Notes: generated by a model from the sequence alone, not told the origin. A stretch of DNA of 64,000 nucleotides from an uncultured delta proteobacterium (GCA_963769935.1 CAVYNY010000032.1:1-64000); one strand, 5' to 3'; shown: positions 32,369 through 41,213, counted from the first letter of the stretch. Program-made: numbers and translations.

Positions 32369-32557
32369 TCGTACGATCCCTTTTTATTGTCGAGATAAAA
32401 ACGTGTATGAGAATTAATCCTAATACATACGGGGATTGGTGACAAGCTGTTTGTTGCGGCAGGGTAATCGATCCTTCCGATTTGCTGCATAAAATCTTTG
32501 ACGACGTCCTCCAGAGTGCCGTAGATGAATGCCATGGGGTAGTGGAATAAATGAAAC

Positions 32558-32998
32558 CTACAGTTTCAAAAAGCCGTCCAGGGTCAGGCTGGTTGCCAGC
32601 ATCACGCTGTTAATATCCTGATGCGCGGTCCAGCTTTCAGCTTGTCCTGTATTGGGGATCAAGCCAGAATTTTTCGATTGCTTCGCCCAAACGGGCATAC
32701 CGTCGGAGGGCGCTGACCTGCGAATAGATGGCGTGAATATTAGCGAGCATCTTCGGATTTTCTTCAATCAAGCCCTCGATCCCATTCCAGACGGTCGTCG
32801 TATGTCTCATCGGACTTGCGTTCATTCATCTGCTTGCCGATTCGAAGTCCGCCGGTAAAGTTCAAGAAAGTTGCAAACGGCAAAAGCATCCGTCCAGAGA
32901 TATCGCCGCGGCGGCTTGGCAGCGGTTGCCAGGCCGGTTGCATCGGAGAATTCGGCCATGATCCCCTTAACAGTAGAAATGTCTGCCGGTTGGTTCAT
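32558..32998 (-). pseudogene. Internally deleted conserved hypothetical gene (RRYLWTDAFAVCNF ... HQDINSVMLATSL)
   Basis: N- and C-terminal motifs of a larger protein are joined across stops and frameshifts. Confidence 0.55.
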
Positions 32999-33088
32999 AT
33001 CAAATTAGATCCAGCATCGACCTCTTAGAAGCGACGGTCTTGCGTCTGCCTCTGTTAGATTGTTATGCGGATTTAGGCAACGTTAAAG

Positions 33089-34267
33089 CTAACACAGCTC
33101 ACCTTGGGCCTGGTCCTGCGTGTATTTCAAATCCGAAAGCAGCGACAACTCGGCTTTGGCAAGCTCCCGGCCCAAGTAGGCAGCATGGTCCAGCTGCGAA
33201 ATGAGCTTCTTCTCTATCAGGGTGGCACAAATACTCGCCGAATCCTTGCCCTCGATCATGTTCATGAGCCTTCCGTCGTTGCTGTAATGTTCAATCAGCA
33301 GCGGATGCTCTTTGCCTTTCATTACCATGATCACGAAATAGCCTGCCGGATCGAGTTTCAGTCGCTTCGCGGGTTTGGCCCTTTGAATCTCGAGCAAATC
33401 TACCTTCAGGCCGGCTTCGTATGGTTGAACCGCCTGTTTATCCAACAGCTCCAAGCGGCCGGCGAGTGTGGACCGGTCACTTTCGCCGATCAAGTCGACC
33501 GGCTGTATTTGCTTTCTGAAATGGCTGACTTCGCCTTCGGTAAGGTTTTTCAACACCGGCCTGGCGCCGCGGGCACCGATAATTCGCTTGGTTTTGTCAA
33601 AGCCGCTGCCGGATAGATTTAGAAGCGCATCACCCGGTAAATGTCCTTCGATGTCGCTGCCCCAGAGCACTAAATGGCGGAGGTGGGGGTTGGCGATGAC
33701 ATTCTTGACGAGATGCTCTACTCCGAGGTTCTCGGTGCTGATGGTCCCCAAGATTGCAATTTTAGAAGAAAGAATGCTTAATTCCGGTTCATCGAAGTGA
33801 ACCCCTTGCAGGAGAGCCACGGCAATCGATTTTGCAGCGTTAAATACGCGGTAGTCACCCGGCTGCGCGGGCCAGTTTTGGATGCTAAATTCATCCGGTC
33901 GGATGAGTTCCATCCTGCAAGGATCGATAGAATCTGCCTCAACTTCGTCAAGGCTGTCCATAACTTCATTGAATGTGTTGTATGCCGGAACCGGCAGACA
34001 CGGTTTGCACCCCATTCATCCGTGCATTTTCAGGAAATCAGCATCTTTGATCCAGCGCTCGAAATCATTTTCGATCTCCGCTAAACAGTGATCGGATTCG
34101 ATTTTTCGAAATCCCCTTATTTTTTCGTAAATGCTGTTTAGGACGTCTCCATAAAAGCATGAACATGTGCGGCACTTTTCGTGCTGCAGGATTTCCTTGA
34201 AGTCCGTGTGAATCCGCTTAAAAGCCGTGATTTTTTGCGCATGATGCGAGGATGCGGTATTTTTCAT
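33089..34267 (-). CDS. Candidate selenoprotein, 392 aa: Cys-rich N-domain (CxxCxC; U84-xx-C-xx-C) + MtrA-like domain + DUF4346-like domain
   Basis: ORFs 34016..34285 and 33089..34015 are in frame, separated only by TGA (GGA TGA ATG GGG TGC AAA CCG TGT). SECIS-like hairpin follows. MtrA-like TENLGVEHLVKNVIANPHLR..EGHLPGDAL; DUF4346-like LDPAGYFVI..ISQLDHAAYLGRELAKAE. GGAGG RBS before ATG at 34267. Confidence 0.75.
33979..34000 (-). promoter_or_regulatory. Putative bacterial SECIS hairpin
   Basis: mRNA UGU-C-UGCCG-GUUC-CGGCA-U-ACA starting 16 nt after the UGA; apical loop begins with G about 25 nt downstream. Confidence 0.6.
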
Positions 34268-34319
34268 CTTTTGCCTCCAGGGCATTAGGTCCGTCGCAGG
34301 ACCGGTGGTTTTTCCTAAT

Positions 34320-34448
34320 TCGTGCCTGAACGAAAAGTCTTCATTTGCGGCAGGTTGGGTTGAGCCCGAAAATCAGGCTCCTACGTCGATATGGATGCCC
34401 GAGGGCGAAACCCAACACAGCCGTTGGACGGGTTTTGTTCAACCACTA
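34320..34448. repeat. REP-containing MITE-like element; related inverted copy at 62245-62414
   Basis: Ends GTGCCTGAACGAAAAGTC ... TTTTGTTCAACCACTA; internal GGTTGGGTTGAG / GAAACCCAAC. Confidence 0.65.
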
Positions 34449-34471
34449 GTTAAGCTGTCACTGATTGCTTA

Positions 34472-35482: not shown

Positions 35483-38400
35483 TCAAATTTCAGGCGCCTT
35501 TTCAAGTTGGCCTAGCGAAATTCGGCGGGTTTTTGCTGATCCGGTCAACTTCTCCTGCAACCTGCCAGATAGATATAAATAACCGGCGTAATGTAAAGGG
35601 TCAGAAACTGGGAAAAAATCAGACCGCTCACGACGGCAAGACCAGGGGGCGACGGGCTTCAGTGCCTGCGCCATAGCTGAAGGCGATGGGCAGGGTTGCC
35701 AGGAGCGCCGCTATGGTGGTCATCATGATCGGGCGGAAACGCAGAATGCAGGCTTCGAAAATTGCCTCATCGGGCTTTCGGCCTGCGGTACGCTGGGCGC
35801 TCAGGGCGAAGTCAACTATCATGATCGCGTTCTTTTTAACGATTCCGATAAGCATGATGATACCACAAAGGCATAGATGCTCAAAGAGAGTTTGAAGATG
35901 AGAAGAGTCAGCAGGGCGAGAAAGAGGAAGGAAGGAAGAGAGAATAGTAGGGGATGGAGGAAACTTTCGTAGAGGACGCTCAGTACGATATAGATGACCA
36001 TATGGCCATAAACAGAAACTAGCACATAACTTCATAGATTATGGAACTACTGGGCTGTGCTTGGAAGCTGGTAGTCAGGGAGGCAGGCAGACGAAGCTCT
36101 CTGACAAGTCTGCTGATTTTTGCAACGGCATCTCACAGAGAGACATAGGCCTTAGATAGAAGGACAAAGTGACAGATGGAAGCTGCGAGGTATGGTTTAC
36201 GGTAAAGGGTAAGACGCGCTGGATAAAAGTGGTCACAGATTACAGGGGGATCAGAAGGCCGGTGGATGAGCGGGTGTAGAGCATGCTAAGGGCTGACGGG
36301 TACCGTTGATAGCGGGGTTACACTTCCAGGATCACCTGGTATTAGTTATAGGATGCATATATGATAGAAAATGAAGAGAGATATAAGAGATGTAGAGGGT
36401 GTTAAATTGCTGGGAGTAAAGATAAGGAAGTAGATTTGTAGAGATAGATGTAAAGGAAGATTGAGAGCTGAAGATTGAAGGTAGATGGTAAAATATGTAA
36501 TATGTAAGGTAGAGCAGCTAGGTTAAATAATAGAGGAAAATGGTAAAGCTAAAAAATGGATGGAAATGGATGGTGTACTGGTAGGGGATATAGGTAAGAT
36601 GCGATAAAAAAGAATAATAGGGGGGTTATGCAGGTAGAATATATATAGGGAATATAGGAAGATAGAAAGAAATATATGGATAAGTAAGAAGGAGATAAGA
36701 AGGAGATATGTGAGAGGAGAGAGAAAAAAGATGAAAAATAAAAGAGTAGAAGATAGATGAAGAAAAGATAGCTAAGAAAAAAGAAATAAAAGATAAAAAA
36801 AGGGTAAAAGGAAGATGAAAAGGGAGAAAGATTATGGAGTAGAAAAAAGGAGAAGAAGGAGAAATATAGGGAAGATAAGGTGAAAAAAAAGATATGGTAG
36901 GTGTAATGAATGGGAATAAATAATAAGAGGATAAAGAAAAAAAGATAAGAAGTGGAAGAAAAAAGGATAAAAGAAAAAAAAAGAAAGAAAAGGAAGTGAT
37001 ATAAAATATATAGAGAATATATAAAAAGGAAAGAAGAAAGGAGAAGAAAAAATAATAGGAAGAAGAAAAAAAAATAAAAGGTAGGATATAAAGGTGAGAA
37101 ATAAGAAATATGATGAAAAGAAAGGGAGAAAGAGTAAAAGAGAAAAATAAAGATAAAAGAATAGAAAGGAGATAGAGACTGCAAACTAGCGCAGCAGCCT
37201 CTAAGAAATAAGGCCGGAATAAATGTAGGGAGAGAGTATGGATATAATGGTAAAGAAGATTATATAGAAAAGTAAAGGGAGGAAGTAGAAAAAATATTTT
37301 ATAATTAGATATGAAGGAAGATGTTTAAAGAATAAAAATGGAGTAATAAAAGACAAAAAAAAAAAAAAAGGAAAGGGAATAGAGGAGAGATAGTAAAGGA
37401 TGTAATAGAGCAGATGCATCAAAGCGAAAGTTGCAATAATAGAAAGAGGAAGTGCAGACTGGGAATGATGGTGGCTGGCAGGTCCGCAAAAAGAGAAAGA
37501 ACAAAAATGAAGACACCCATACATGAGAGGGTGAACTAGAGATACTGAATAGAGTAAAGGATGGATAGGGAGAGGTAGTAGAGAATGTAGAGTTAAACAG
37601 AAGAGGGAATCTGAGAGAGAAAGGTAGGCAGAAGCATTTTGATAGAGTAGACAACAGAGACGGTGTTTGTGCAGGGCTGGCGTTGAATGGACAGGATGAA
37701 GGCGCGCTGGTACTTGTACGAACTAGCGACTTTGTGATTTTACACGCTGTCAAGGACTAGGAGAAGCTGGTAGAGATAGAATAGGTGAGAGTTGCGATAG
37801 GAGACGATGAGAGGGCGGTATATGGAAGAGTACAGAAGCTGGAAGGTTGCGGTGACTGTAAAGCCTGGTAGTTTACGCTCAGGGCGAAGGTGGGAAGATA
37901 GACGTTGGCGTAGGCAACGCATCTAAGACTTCTTAGATTAACAGGCAGTAGGAGGTCAGGGCATTAGGGTTCAACTGGACGCGCAAGGCGTATTTTTGGG
38001 AGCAGAAAACCTGGACTTGCGAGACGCTGTACACATGGAAATACGCTGCGCTATGAGGGTTTCAGCATATTCATCTACAGTAGACAGCGGCAGGATGAGT
38101 GAGCTGAGAGACACAAGTAGAATAGACTGCTAGGCAGGGTTGACTTTGCGGAATGAAGGGGGATTAGGCATTTAAGGCGGGAGAAGAGTTGGGCGAGGGA
38201 AATGGAGTTGTGACGTACAGCGCGCATCATCAATATAGCGATTCAGCGAGAACTGCAGCGTAATCTGGGAGGTACACAAGGCACTGGTGGAGGTCATAGA
38301 GTACAATAAGGCGATAGTGGTAAACTGTAGTTACAGCGGCGTAGAGACTGAAGAGGACATGGTCTAGGGACTGGCTAAAGGCAGGCTGGCGGAGACTGGA

Positions 38401-38533
38401 TAGTGGGAAAATACACATTAGGCAGGGCACTGACCGGGAGAAGCAGATAAGCTATGATGCAGAAAAGGAGAATAAACGCTATAAACAGCGTAGTCATTAC
38501 GGGGCGGCGGATAAAATGTTCGGAGATACTCAC
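35483..38533 (-). pseudogene. MdtB/MdtC-like RND permease with extreme coding-strand G loss
   Basis: N-terminus [31 protein letters not shown]-terminus [34 protein letters not shown]. The ~3.05 kb span matches a full gene, but the centre is unreadable and purine-rich on the + strand. Confidence 0.8.
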
Positions 38534-38589
38534 TGAACTTATACTCCGTTGATTTGCTGGGAGCCTCTGCGATTTTAGACATGGGAGCA

Positions 38590-39703
38590 GGGAAAAAGAC
38601 ACAGCTGGCTGTCTATCACGACGTTCTCTACGTTTTGCAGTCCCTTATCTATAATCGCTTCCTAGTTAACGGTTCTTTACACAAAGATGGGCAGATACTA
38701 CGCGGTAAGGTCAGGTTTGACCACAAAAACATATTGCTACTACTGTACCGTTTGAACGCTAGGGAAGGAACCACTATCGCTCCGGGCTTCTAGTGAGGGT
38801 CACCACAACGTTTACAAACTGGCTCGGCCAAAGCGACTTGTCTTTGTTGGGGAAGGAGGCCTTGAGCTGTATGGTTACGGTGGAGGGATCGACAGTGTTG
38901 TCCATGAAGGTCACTTCGCCGTTGGTAACCTGATCCTCACGGCTCGCAACGGTTGCCCCGACTCGAGCTTGCCTGAAGCCATGTATTTCCTCACGTCGGG
39001 CAGATATTTTTCCGGGATGAAAAAATTGACGTAAATGGGACTTATCTGGTTAATAATTACGAGAGGGTTTGCAGCATCATTGGATTTGACGAGGTTTACA
39101 CGGTCAACCTTCAAGGCTCCGAGGCAGCCGTCGATGGGAGAATTGATGAAGCAGTGGCTCAATTGAAGCTTTCCATTTTCAATGGCCGCCTCGTCCGCCT
39201 GGACAGTAGCCTTGAGCGCCGCGGCATTGGCTATGACCTGATCGTGCTGCTCATGGAAACATACCCTTTTCCAACGACGGATGTAACGCGTTTGAGCTCT
39301 TAGAGGGCGTTTTCGAGCTGGGCATTGTCTTCGCCAGAGCGGCTTGCATCTGTTTAAGCTGGGCTTGGACAAACCTTGGATCGATCGTGAAAAGCGGGGC
39401 GCCTGCCGCCACGCATTGGCCATCCTTAAAGTGAACCGCTACCAACTCTCCATCGACCTGGGCCTTTACCGATACGGTAGCGTAGGCCTGGACAGTCCCT
39501 ACGGCCTGAATCTGGATGGGCACGGTTTTCTCAGTCACGGCCTGGACGCTGACGGGCAAGGTCGTCTCTGCGGTGGGCAGCGCTTCGGGCTCAGAAGCAG
39601 CGTCTTTGAACAACGGCAACAACATTCATGACTACTAAGAGTGAAATCATGCAGCGCAAAGACGAGTCTGGAAAGATGAATAAATTAGATGGCGTTTTCA
39701 TGG
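38590..39703 (-). pseudogene. MdtA-like RND periplasmic adaptor, frameshifted (ends approximate)
   Basis: VGTVQAYATVSVKAQVDGEL..LFTIDPR; INSPIDG; LVIINQISPIYV; found in several frames. Confidence 0.8.
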
Positions 39704-39838
39704 ATATTTGTATCCTTATAACTTGATCCTTTTTAGAGCGACAGGTGCTCGATCCTCTGCAGGAGATCTGAGAGCGGAAATAGTGTTGGTGCCGGCGCTT
39801 TAATCGCATGGACACTCAGTGCACGCGGCTCGAGTCTA

Positions 39839-41213
39839 CTCAGCTCCGGGGACGGAAATGCCATCCTCCCCGAGGGCTTTGAAAAGGCTTATCAAAGCTG
39901 TTGAAACTCCCTGCTCGTTCTGGACGAGTTGGTCTTACCTGAAATAAGGACGCCGACTCTGCAGGACGTTAGAAAGTCTACCAGGCCTTTAACATACAAT
40001 TCACTGGAGATATCAACGGCTTGACGGTTGGCCGTAACGCTCCACGAGGGAACGGCGCGTCTCCTGATTCTTAGAGTAAATGACAATGGCATTTCAACGT
40101 CCTCCAAGGCCCGAGGACCGTATTCTCATAAAAAAGGAGCGCCTGTCCTGACGGGCGCTTTGCACCTCGATCGTCGCTCTGATTTTGCGGCGTCAAAAAG
40201 AGGCCATTGCACGCTGGGTCCGGAGTCAAAAGCGGCTGTCCGGGGTCACGAAATCCGAGGCCTTCGTGCTTAGCAGGCCATACGTGCCGGTCACGAAAAG
40301 CTTGGGAACAGGGCAGCTGTTGCAACCCTATGCGGGCAGTCGCCGCCGCAAGTTCGCGCTCGGCACGGCGGATGTCAGGGCGTCGGCGCAGAATCCGATG
40401 GTAAGCCGATCGGCACTTGCGGCGGCACCGGCGGAATGGATCCCTCTTCAAGAGTTCTCCAAGCAATGCTTCCGGCTCCAAGCCAGGAGTACGGCCAAAC
40501 GATGGATCGCTTGCGGATAGAGATTCCAGGGGAGGGACCTTGGCCTCCGTTGTCGCAAGCAGGGTTTGCGACTGAGCAACGCCAGAATATTGCCAGGCCG
40601 GCCTCATATCGCCCCCGCGTAGATACAGGGTCTGCTGTTCTGATTTGATATTTTCCCGGGCGATGGCGATCCGGCGCTGATTGCCGCGTACCGCGAGGTA
40701 GTTTGCGGCAACCTCTCCCAGTAACGTCACCAGGACATCACGGCGATTCTCCTCTGAAGCGGCAAAGTGAGCTTCGGCCGCCTCACAGACCGCCGCACAC
40801 CGCCGAACAGGTCAATTTCCCAGCCGGCATCGAAGCCGGCCTGAAACAGGTTGTAATCGTTGCCCGCCTGGTTGGTTGAGGTGTTCTTACTCTGACTGAT
40901 GCGGGTGTATGATCCTGAAGTATCAATGGTCGGGTAGGCCTGTGAACCGCTATCTCAGATGTGCCGTGCCTCACGGATGCGAGCCTGGGCCAGTTCAGGT
41001 CCTTATTGAACGAACGGCGCGATCGATGAGGGAGTCGAGTTCTTTATCCCCGAAAAGGGTCCACCAGCGCAGCACTTCCAGTGGGCCGGCCGAGAGTCCT
41101 GCGCGCTCTGTCTCTTCCCAGTTGGCCGGGACCACGGGCTCGGGTTTCCGATAATCTGGACCGACCGTGCAGCCGAGGATAGAAACTAACAACAAAAATC
41201 CAAAAGCTCGCAT
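39839..41213 (-). pseudogene. NodT/OprM-type efflux outer-membrane lipoprotein, frameshifted
   Basis: ILGCTVGPDY, WWTLFGDKELDSLIDRA, LLGEVAANYL, LRRRPDIRRAERELAAATARIG. Confidence 0.85.

Follow-up and report, generated by a model that had tools for sequence, protein, structure and literature searches.

An in-frame UGA within a six-Cys/Sec domain points to a hidden selenoprotein gene with a predicted MtrA-type cobalamin-binding domain in an uncultured delta proteobacterium

Two kinds of described system come closest to the gene examined here. One is the group of bacterial selenoproteins that carry their SECIS element within the open reading frame, in which, according to a 2026 review (PMC13188914), UGA stands at a conserved cysteine and the genome encodes the selenocysteine (Sec) machinery, two features that recur at this locus; the legend to Fig. 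2 of the same review sets out a consensus model of the bacterial element with four constraints. The other is MtrA of the methanogen Mtr complex, together with its soluble homologues (5LAA, 5L8X; PMC4915002), with which the protein studied here shares its fold at about 34% identity and from which it retains the His/Glu relay and the residues of the nucleotide pocket, whereas it differs in its bacterial host, in an added N-terminal six-Cys/Sec domain and in a C-terminal DUF4346 domain that replaces the membrane anchor. The model NF002128 (PRK00964.1-6, 390 aa, “tetrahydromethanopterin S-methyltransferase subunit A”) spans residues 8-390 of the protein, across the UGA, which means that the Cys form of the architecture has already been modelled. 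Unlike a full member of that model, the protein stays under its cut-off of 568 bits, with a score of 293.6, as do the four Cys homologs tested (253-525), and the model carries no selenoprotein name and a label that fits the middle domain only. The recoding mechanism considered below is ordinary, and the three-domain protein is known already but misnamed and uncharacterised.

The gene lies in a 64,000-nt stretch of the assembly GCA_963769935.1 (CAVYNY010000032.1:1-64000), the whole of which is hereafter called the window. As the initial annotation had proposed, two ORFs (34016-34285 and 33089-34015) share one frame with nothing other than a TGA codon (34018-34016) between them, an arrangement that we confirmed on the minus strand; the plus-strand reading of 33089-34267 is full of stops and was rejected. 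Reading the TGA as U from the ATG at 34267 gives a minus-strand product of 392 aa, with Sec84 predicted within H-G-U-M-G-C-K-P-C (residues 82-90). The GGAGG ribosome-binding site and the CRTCSC and EGHLPG motifs named in the initial annotation were all located, the latter two at residues 32-37 and around H209 of the translation, respectively. Its U-x-x-C-x-x-C motif is present as well, and is better written as U-x-G-C-x-x-C, the latter half of a six-Cys domain. The features are as follows, with the basis for each in brackets.

33089..34267, minus strand: read-through coding sequence comprising the six-Cys/Sec domain, the MtrA-type domain and DUF4346 (translation; NF002128 over residues 8-390)
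34274..34278, minus strand: GGAGG ribosome-binding site, 6 nt 5' of the ATG at 34267 (sequence)
33938..34267, minus strand: N-terminal helical six-Cys/Sec domain, about residues 1-110, without a Pfam family and also found as a stand-alone protein (predicted fold, profiles)
34157..34174, minus strand: C-x-x-C-x-C motif, C32, C35 and C37 (sequence, alignment)
34016..34018, minus strand: in-frame UGA, predicted Sec84 (translation, homolog codons, contigs)
33998..34018, minus strand: U-x-G-C-x-x-C motif, U84, C87 and C90 (sequence, alignment)
33979..34000, minus strand: predicted SECIS hairpin, with conserved core at 33983-33996 and GUUC loop at 33988-33991 (homolog alignment, constraint, rules from PMC13188914)
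33434..33883, minus strand: MtrA-type cobalamin-binding domain, residues 129-278 (Pfam, fold, residues)
33641..33643, minus strand, within the MtrA-type domain: predicted cobalt ligand H209, with E179 (comparison with MtrA residues)
33113..33355, minus strand: PterinBD-DUF4346, residues 305-385, with invariant E326, H327, H361 and Y364 (Pfam, alignment)

The gene is isolated in the window, with a frameshifted RND efflux operon on one side and ODP, SpoIIE and CheBR signalling genes on the other. An Rfam scan of the window gave no match, and promoter and terminator scans returned counts no higher than in shuffles. Just upstream of the gene there is a dispersed non-coding repeat in two blocks (34312-34455), which has 29 blastn matches in the genome including itself (78-88% identity), folds as a long hairpin of about -55 kcal/mol (a value taken without a shuffle control) and matches nothing in Rfam. 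Between the gene and the ODP gene, at about 32400-33030 on the minus strand, fragments resemble a frameshifted or decayed ORF.

Homologs were examined at 91 loci from genomes and metagenomes, 84 of which show the motif, including the window locus and one stand-alone copy of the N-terminal domain (L036). The codon at position 84 of these motif loci is TGA in 16, TGC or TGT in 68, and TAA or TAG in none, as the initial annotation would expect of a selenoprotein and its Cys relatives. Left out before this count were L041 and L043, whose matches begin near residue 130, and seven motif-less loci, among which L070 was read by hand and holds a 17th TGA, L073 is broken up by other sequence and the remaining five start further downstream. 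L070 (1-600) and L073 (800-1200) are homologs split by inserted sequence, and L070 keeps both the TGA and the hairpin. The TGA loci are 47% to 73% identical to the window protein, and tblastn alignments continue across the stop at these identities, which indicates coding conservation on both sides. The codon 3' of the TGA is CTG in 15 of the 16 TGA loci, so that a separate downstream ORF would usually lack a start codon; at the window locus an ATG follows the TGA immediately. Readthrough with Trp or another residue was rejected because every one of the 68 non-TGA loci has Cys in this column.

Fourteen TGA rows and the Cys row L054 form one clade (SH-aLRT 100), on a long branch (1.09), in a tree made by a quick method with midpoint rooting from the 74 rows, out of 84, that were left once short and identical ones had been removed. 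The TGA loci are therefore kin and their counts are not independent, for which reason we claim no p-value. Three database relatives of L054 (76-89% identical to it) terminate exactly before position 84, which suggests that L054 is a reversion to Cys, and as the tree is midpoint-rooted, a history of one gain plus one reversion stays a suggestion. The full-length gene is patchy, with 3 carriers among the 301 genomes of the order and none among the 7 of the genus, and a GTDB pattern scan with the single protein as query found only one locus.

The hairpin described in the initial annotation is present, starting at nt +16 after the UGA and bearing a GUUC apical loop 24 nt from it on an upper stem of 5 bp; the lower UGU/ACA stem drawn there is not conserved. 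The segment from +16 to +45 folds at -9.9 kcal/mol, and the hairpin fits all four constraints of the bacterial model as given in the Fig. 2 legend of PMC13188914, which it resembles in its 4-nt loop beginning with G-U 24 nt downstream, its stem of at least 4 bp and its energy below -7.5 kcal/mol. When the SECIS rule from that legend was applied, 11 of the 12 distinct TGA sequences passed, as against 5 of the 62 with Cys; L053 failed on energy, and the Cys row L054 failed the rule too. Because 103 of 4000 random TGAs of the same genome passed a similar rule at that energy, the hairpin alone is weak and only modestly unusual, and the real evidence is conservation. Among 14 TGA genes, three of the four fourfold-degenerate sites within the hairpin are invariant compared with none of 35 elsewhere in the gene, and the sequence 3' of the UGA is under extra constraint. 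No compensatory base changes were seen in the hairpin among these 14 genes, in which the core pairs do not vary and are hence uninformative on this point; 3 of the 14 have lost the closing pair, and the lower stem varies.

The Sec machinery that the initial annotation named for checking is encoded in the genome, with selB, two selD genes (each with an in-frame TGA) and tRNA-Sec (selC) all over the cut-off. A selA is likewise over the cut-off, with two frameshifts that spread it over three frames (G000:C22 678107-679500), and since that contig's two tuf genes are frameshifted as well (721200-722400 and 736600-737850), an assembly error is the likelier cause of the break. The frameshifts in selA, tuf and the RND efflux operon (window 35600-41200), together with a low-complexity stretch near 36100-38000, point to an error-prone assembly. 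All 11 genomes with a homolog that were tested, among them carriers of the Cys form, have both selA and selB, and the presence of the machinery therefore does not discriminate between the two forms. ARAGORN also calls a tRNA-Pyl (G000:C11:285724-285797), so that this genome may decode both Sec and pyrrolysine.

Two readings would deny the codon its recoding. The many indels of this error-prone genome, which hit selA, tuf and, at about 35.6-41 kb, the efflux operon, invite the idea that TGA is an assembly error for TGC or TGT; however, contigs of runs X1 (33934-34227) and X3 (33920-34053), both from study P1, which may be the source of the assembly itself, match the codon position with 0 differing letters, and TGA occurs at 16 other loci. 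Sequencing error, which the initial annotation had raised as a matter for the reads, was rejected on these two grounds, and we give it a negligible chance. The UGA might instead be a true stop, leaving either an 83-aa and a 308-aa protein made by TGA-ATG coupling or a pseudogene beside a dead selA, as could be read from the ATG right after the TGA in the window, from the frameshifts in selA and from the downstream piece standing alone in 119 of the 120 best database matches. Yet TGA is used exclusively at 17 loci down to 47% identity, synonymous sites are frozen where the SECIS would lie, and the tuf frameshifts are of the same kind as those of selA. A split gene is unlikely, moreover, because CTG follows the TGA in 15 of 16 loci and because the break would remove one Cys and cut through a six-Cys domain found intact elsewhere as a small stand-alone protein. 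We consider a true stop very improbable, and it is with high confidence that we predict a single selenoprotein gene from the two ORFs, in which SelB would read the hairpin and insert Sec84.

That standard annotation would split the gene had been foreseen, and it holds: the N-terminal domain is absent from 119 of the 120 best database matches, of which one is full-length (a Cys form), 63 begin at most 7 residues after position 84 and 56 begin later. The named close matches are labelled Desulfobacterales. The NCBIfam selenoprotein models gave no match to the protein. The terms MtrA, tetrahydromethanopterin methyltransferase and DUF4346 are absent from Table 1 of the 2026 review, which covers 119 families (PMC13188914); “tetrahydromethanopterin” and “DUF4346” are absent from the main texts of deep-Sep and BSepDB, for which the search listing did not return “MtrA” either; the accessible text of the 2022 Haft preprint has none of MtrA, tetrahydromethanopterin and DUF4346; and that of PMC1976440 has neither “MtrA” nor “tetrahydromethanopterin”. 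PMC11378808 and PMC11291895 treat MtrA in other contexts, and the literature searched yielded neither “DUF4346” nor a paper on the three-domain protein family. With the families of Haft and Tolstoy 2025 and of Haft and Gwadz 2023 compared through the review table and the 2022 preprint, this selenoprotein family is apparently uncatalogued, and the earlier remark that no catalogued family could be recognised stands for the lists compared (Table 1 of PMC13188914 and the others above). Against these catalogues, as far as their accessible parts go, it would be a new selenoprotein family, none of those listed being built on the MtrA cobalamin fold, and recognizing it would correct a systematic annotation error in which the gene is cut at the UGA.

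The predicted model of the protein has a mean pLDDT of 90 and a pTM of 0.72. A corrinoid-type MtrA domain had been proposed from the outset, and it is supported by Pfam (MtrA, PF04208; E 1e-35, 122.9 bits against a cut-off of 25), by the predicted fold (Z 22.8 and rmsd 1.9 over 158 residues against the cobalamin-bound MtrA 5LAA) and by conserved cobalamin-binding residues. T178, E179, N180, G182, N189 and H209 occur in 66 of 66 rows and Y139 in 61 of 66, and the former six are spaced as T53, E54, N55, G57, N64 and H84 in MtrA, as reported in PMC4915002. The middle domain is thus likely to bind cobalamin base-off through H209 with E179, in the manner of MtrA. Assignment as a true Mtr subunit A (TIGR01111) was rejected at 104 bits against a cut-off of 249, and no mtr genes (mtrEDCBAFGH context) were found among the annotated neighbours.

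The N-terminal domain is modelled as a helical bundle carrying the C-x-x-C-x-C and U/C-x-G-C-x-x-C motifs. Its comparison with solved structures returned only helical bundles of a generic kind (at best Z 9.2, with rmsd 2.0 and 69 aligned), Foldseek returned nothing at E 0.001 or better, and no Fe-S family in Pfam or NCBIfam matched it. A profile of the domain recovers 455 clusters at E 0.001 or better. That the six Cys never vary in the aligned rows is in part a product of the selection of those rows by motifs. Six stand-alone six-Cys helical proteins were noted (L036:5968-6213, L145, L146, L147, L148 and L151), which are without a Pfam or NCBIfam model and of which L151 has only five of the six Cys; of the remaining matches to the six-Cys profile (L149, L150, L152-L154), four weak ones are Fe-S or other false positives and one is a fragment.

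The surroundings of the Cys relatives are rich in genes for metal(loid)s. An ArsR/SmtB gene lies at most 2.5 kb upstream in 33 of the 52 Cys loci with enough flank, and in none of 11 TGA loci. Recurrent neighbours among the 91 loci are thioredoxin-like proteins (27), CcdA/DsbD (19), a GCCGSP membrane protein (12), SMR (10), P1B ATPase (6) and MerC-like proteins (6); thioredoxin-like, CcdA, SMR, P1B and MerC-like neighbours are all absent from the TGA loci. The Cys relatives also adjoin CDF, CusCBA-like, ArsC and ArsP genes and, in one case, a mer operon (the scan for further neighbours covered 96 of the 150 listed), and the metals concerned are mixed, namely As, Hg and Cd/Zn/Cu. Neighbours of the TGA loci are unrelated and often mobile, and the metal link of the Sec clade is thinner than that of the Cys branches. 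At one TGA locus (L061) an ArsP-family permease gene is directly upstream. At another, in genome G514, the gene directly upstream of the TGA homolog (L134:9124-9879) is ArsM-like, scores below model cut-offs and itself contains an in-frame TGA, and this genome is a candidate for holding two tandem hidden selenoproteins.

Two of the six stand-alone copies follow an ArsP permease gene, one of them (L036) between arsP and arsM of an arsR-arsP-arsM-acr3 operon and the other (L147) after padR-arsP, while four have no metal neighbour. The 32 longer proteins picked from the 150 profile matches listed include one ArsR fusion (P0332), and a reading of eight by eye gave further fusions, to the GCCGSP membrane protein or to exported thioredoxin-like partners. 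The GCCGSP membrane protein itself (L110:1573-2076 and 11 other loci; P0259, P0286, P0290) is co-encoded and sometimes fused with the Cys form and has no family match; its reading as MerT/MerC-like is unsupported (best MerC E 0.47). Elsewhere in the genome that carries the window gene, hgcA (G000:C11:436156-437133) and arsM (G000:C18:41719-42564) score over their cut-offs and are unlinked to the gene.

Metal(loid) handling is favoured by the ArsR neighbours, by the fusions and by ars operons that hold the domain on its own, and gene context thus makes it reasonably likely that the family serves metal(loid) resistance or homeostasis. In the mechanism that we propose, SelB would decode the UGA as Sec84 via the hairpin, a toxic metal or metalloid would be held in the six-Cys/Sec domain, a methyl group would pass between cobalt and the held ion, and DUF4346 would bind the methyl carrier (a role suggested by its Pfam name only); in the Cys relatives, the co-encoded thioredoxin-like and CcdA-like proteins and the membrane proteins with Cys pairs would provide reductant and transport for the ion. 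Methyl transfer as the chemistry, whether it methylates or demethylates, with Sec84 serving as a softer and more reactive ligand, is a tentative proposal drawn from the same context. Taken as a whole, our best reading is that the protein uses B12 to pass a methyl group onto or off a metal(loid) bound by the six-Cys/Sec domain, a reading to which we assign a probability of roughly 0.4.

Other functions have to be weighed against this reading. The protein may be a general corrinoid or C1 selenoprotein, in which an Fe-S cluster and a redox-active pair would re-reduce cobalamin and the metal-island siting of the Cys relatives would reflect mobility, or the Sec clade may have changed function. The domain's C-x-x-C-x-x-C spacing, which we take to resemble ferredoxin-type motifs, would suit such a role, as would the unrelated and often mobile neighbours of the TGA loci with their lack of ArsR (0/11), the long branch of the Sec clade (1.09) and the patchy occurrence of the gene (3/301 in the order, 0/7 in the genus). 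But no Fe-S family in Pfam or NCBIfam matched, two TGA loci have ars-type genes directly upstream, and the ArsR fusion is hard to ascribe to location alone; this account is rather unlikely in our judgement. We also regard as unlikely a selenoprotein that handles metal(loid)s with no methyl transfer, its Cys/Sec domain being a chaperone, sink or sensor and its cobalamin a redox centre or signal that reduces the bound ion or reports cobalt or B12 status. The metal(loid) neighbourhoods fit that account equally, the six-Cys domain occurs without MtrA in ars operons, the fusions to ArsR, the Cys-pair membrane protein and exported thioredoxin-like domains suit traffic or sensing, and the genome already has hgcA and arsM elsewhere. 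Against it, the cobalt-ligand relay is conserved in full without variation, MtrA carries a methyl group where it has been characterised (PMC4915002), and DUF4346 keeps invariant His, Glu and Tyr, as expected of an active site.

If B12-dependent methyl transfer is correct, the family would provide a second B12 route to metal(loid) methyl chemistry, widespread as the Cys form, with a Sec form that has been hidden in sediment anaerobes because annotators cut the gene at the UGA; such transfer would also matter for how arsenic and mercury cycle through wetlands and sediments. The six-Cys bundle would likewise represent a metal(loid)-binding module of a new kind, one able to act on its own in ars operons. 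These results bear on the role of bacterial MtrA homologues, for which the evidence leans to metal(loid) handling and not to methanogenesis.

The most specific form of the proposal, which gene context suggests and which we consider doubtful as a whole, is a single-chain enzyme dependent on both cobalamin and Sec that methylates or demethylates a toxic metal(loid) on an MtrA fold, unrelated to HgcAB and ArsM. The HgcA/HgcB system, as described in PMC11588087, is similar by function only, pairing a cobalamin domain with a Cys-rich partner on a soft metal, and it has Sec variants in related anaerobes (PMC13188914). Unlike HgcA, which is Cys-ligated, the window protein has the MtrA fold with a predicted His-on arrangement, and it has neither a membrane domain nor a 2x[4Fe-4S] ferredoxin; HgcA (NF040863) did not match the protein, and what the search of the genome gave, hgcA on C11 and a weak hit on C16, lies away from this locus. 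No ArsM model matched the window protein either, and ArsM differs from it as a Rossmann enzyme that depends on SAM and has no cobalamin. ArsM and its Sec forms (NF008823, NF041536, NF041537, NF047649) are nevertheless similar in that Cys or Sec hold the metalloid for methylation, and arsM adjoins the six-Cys domain in L036, as an ArsM-like gene does the TGA homolog in G514.
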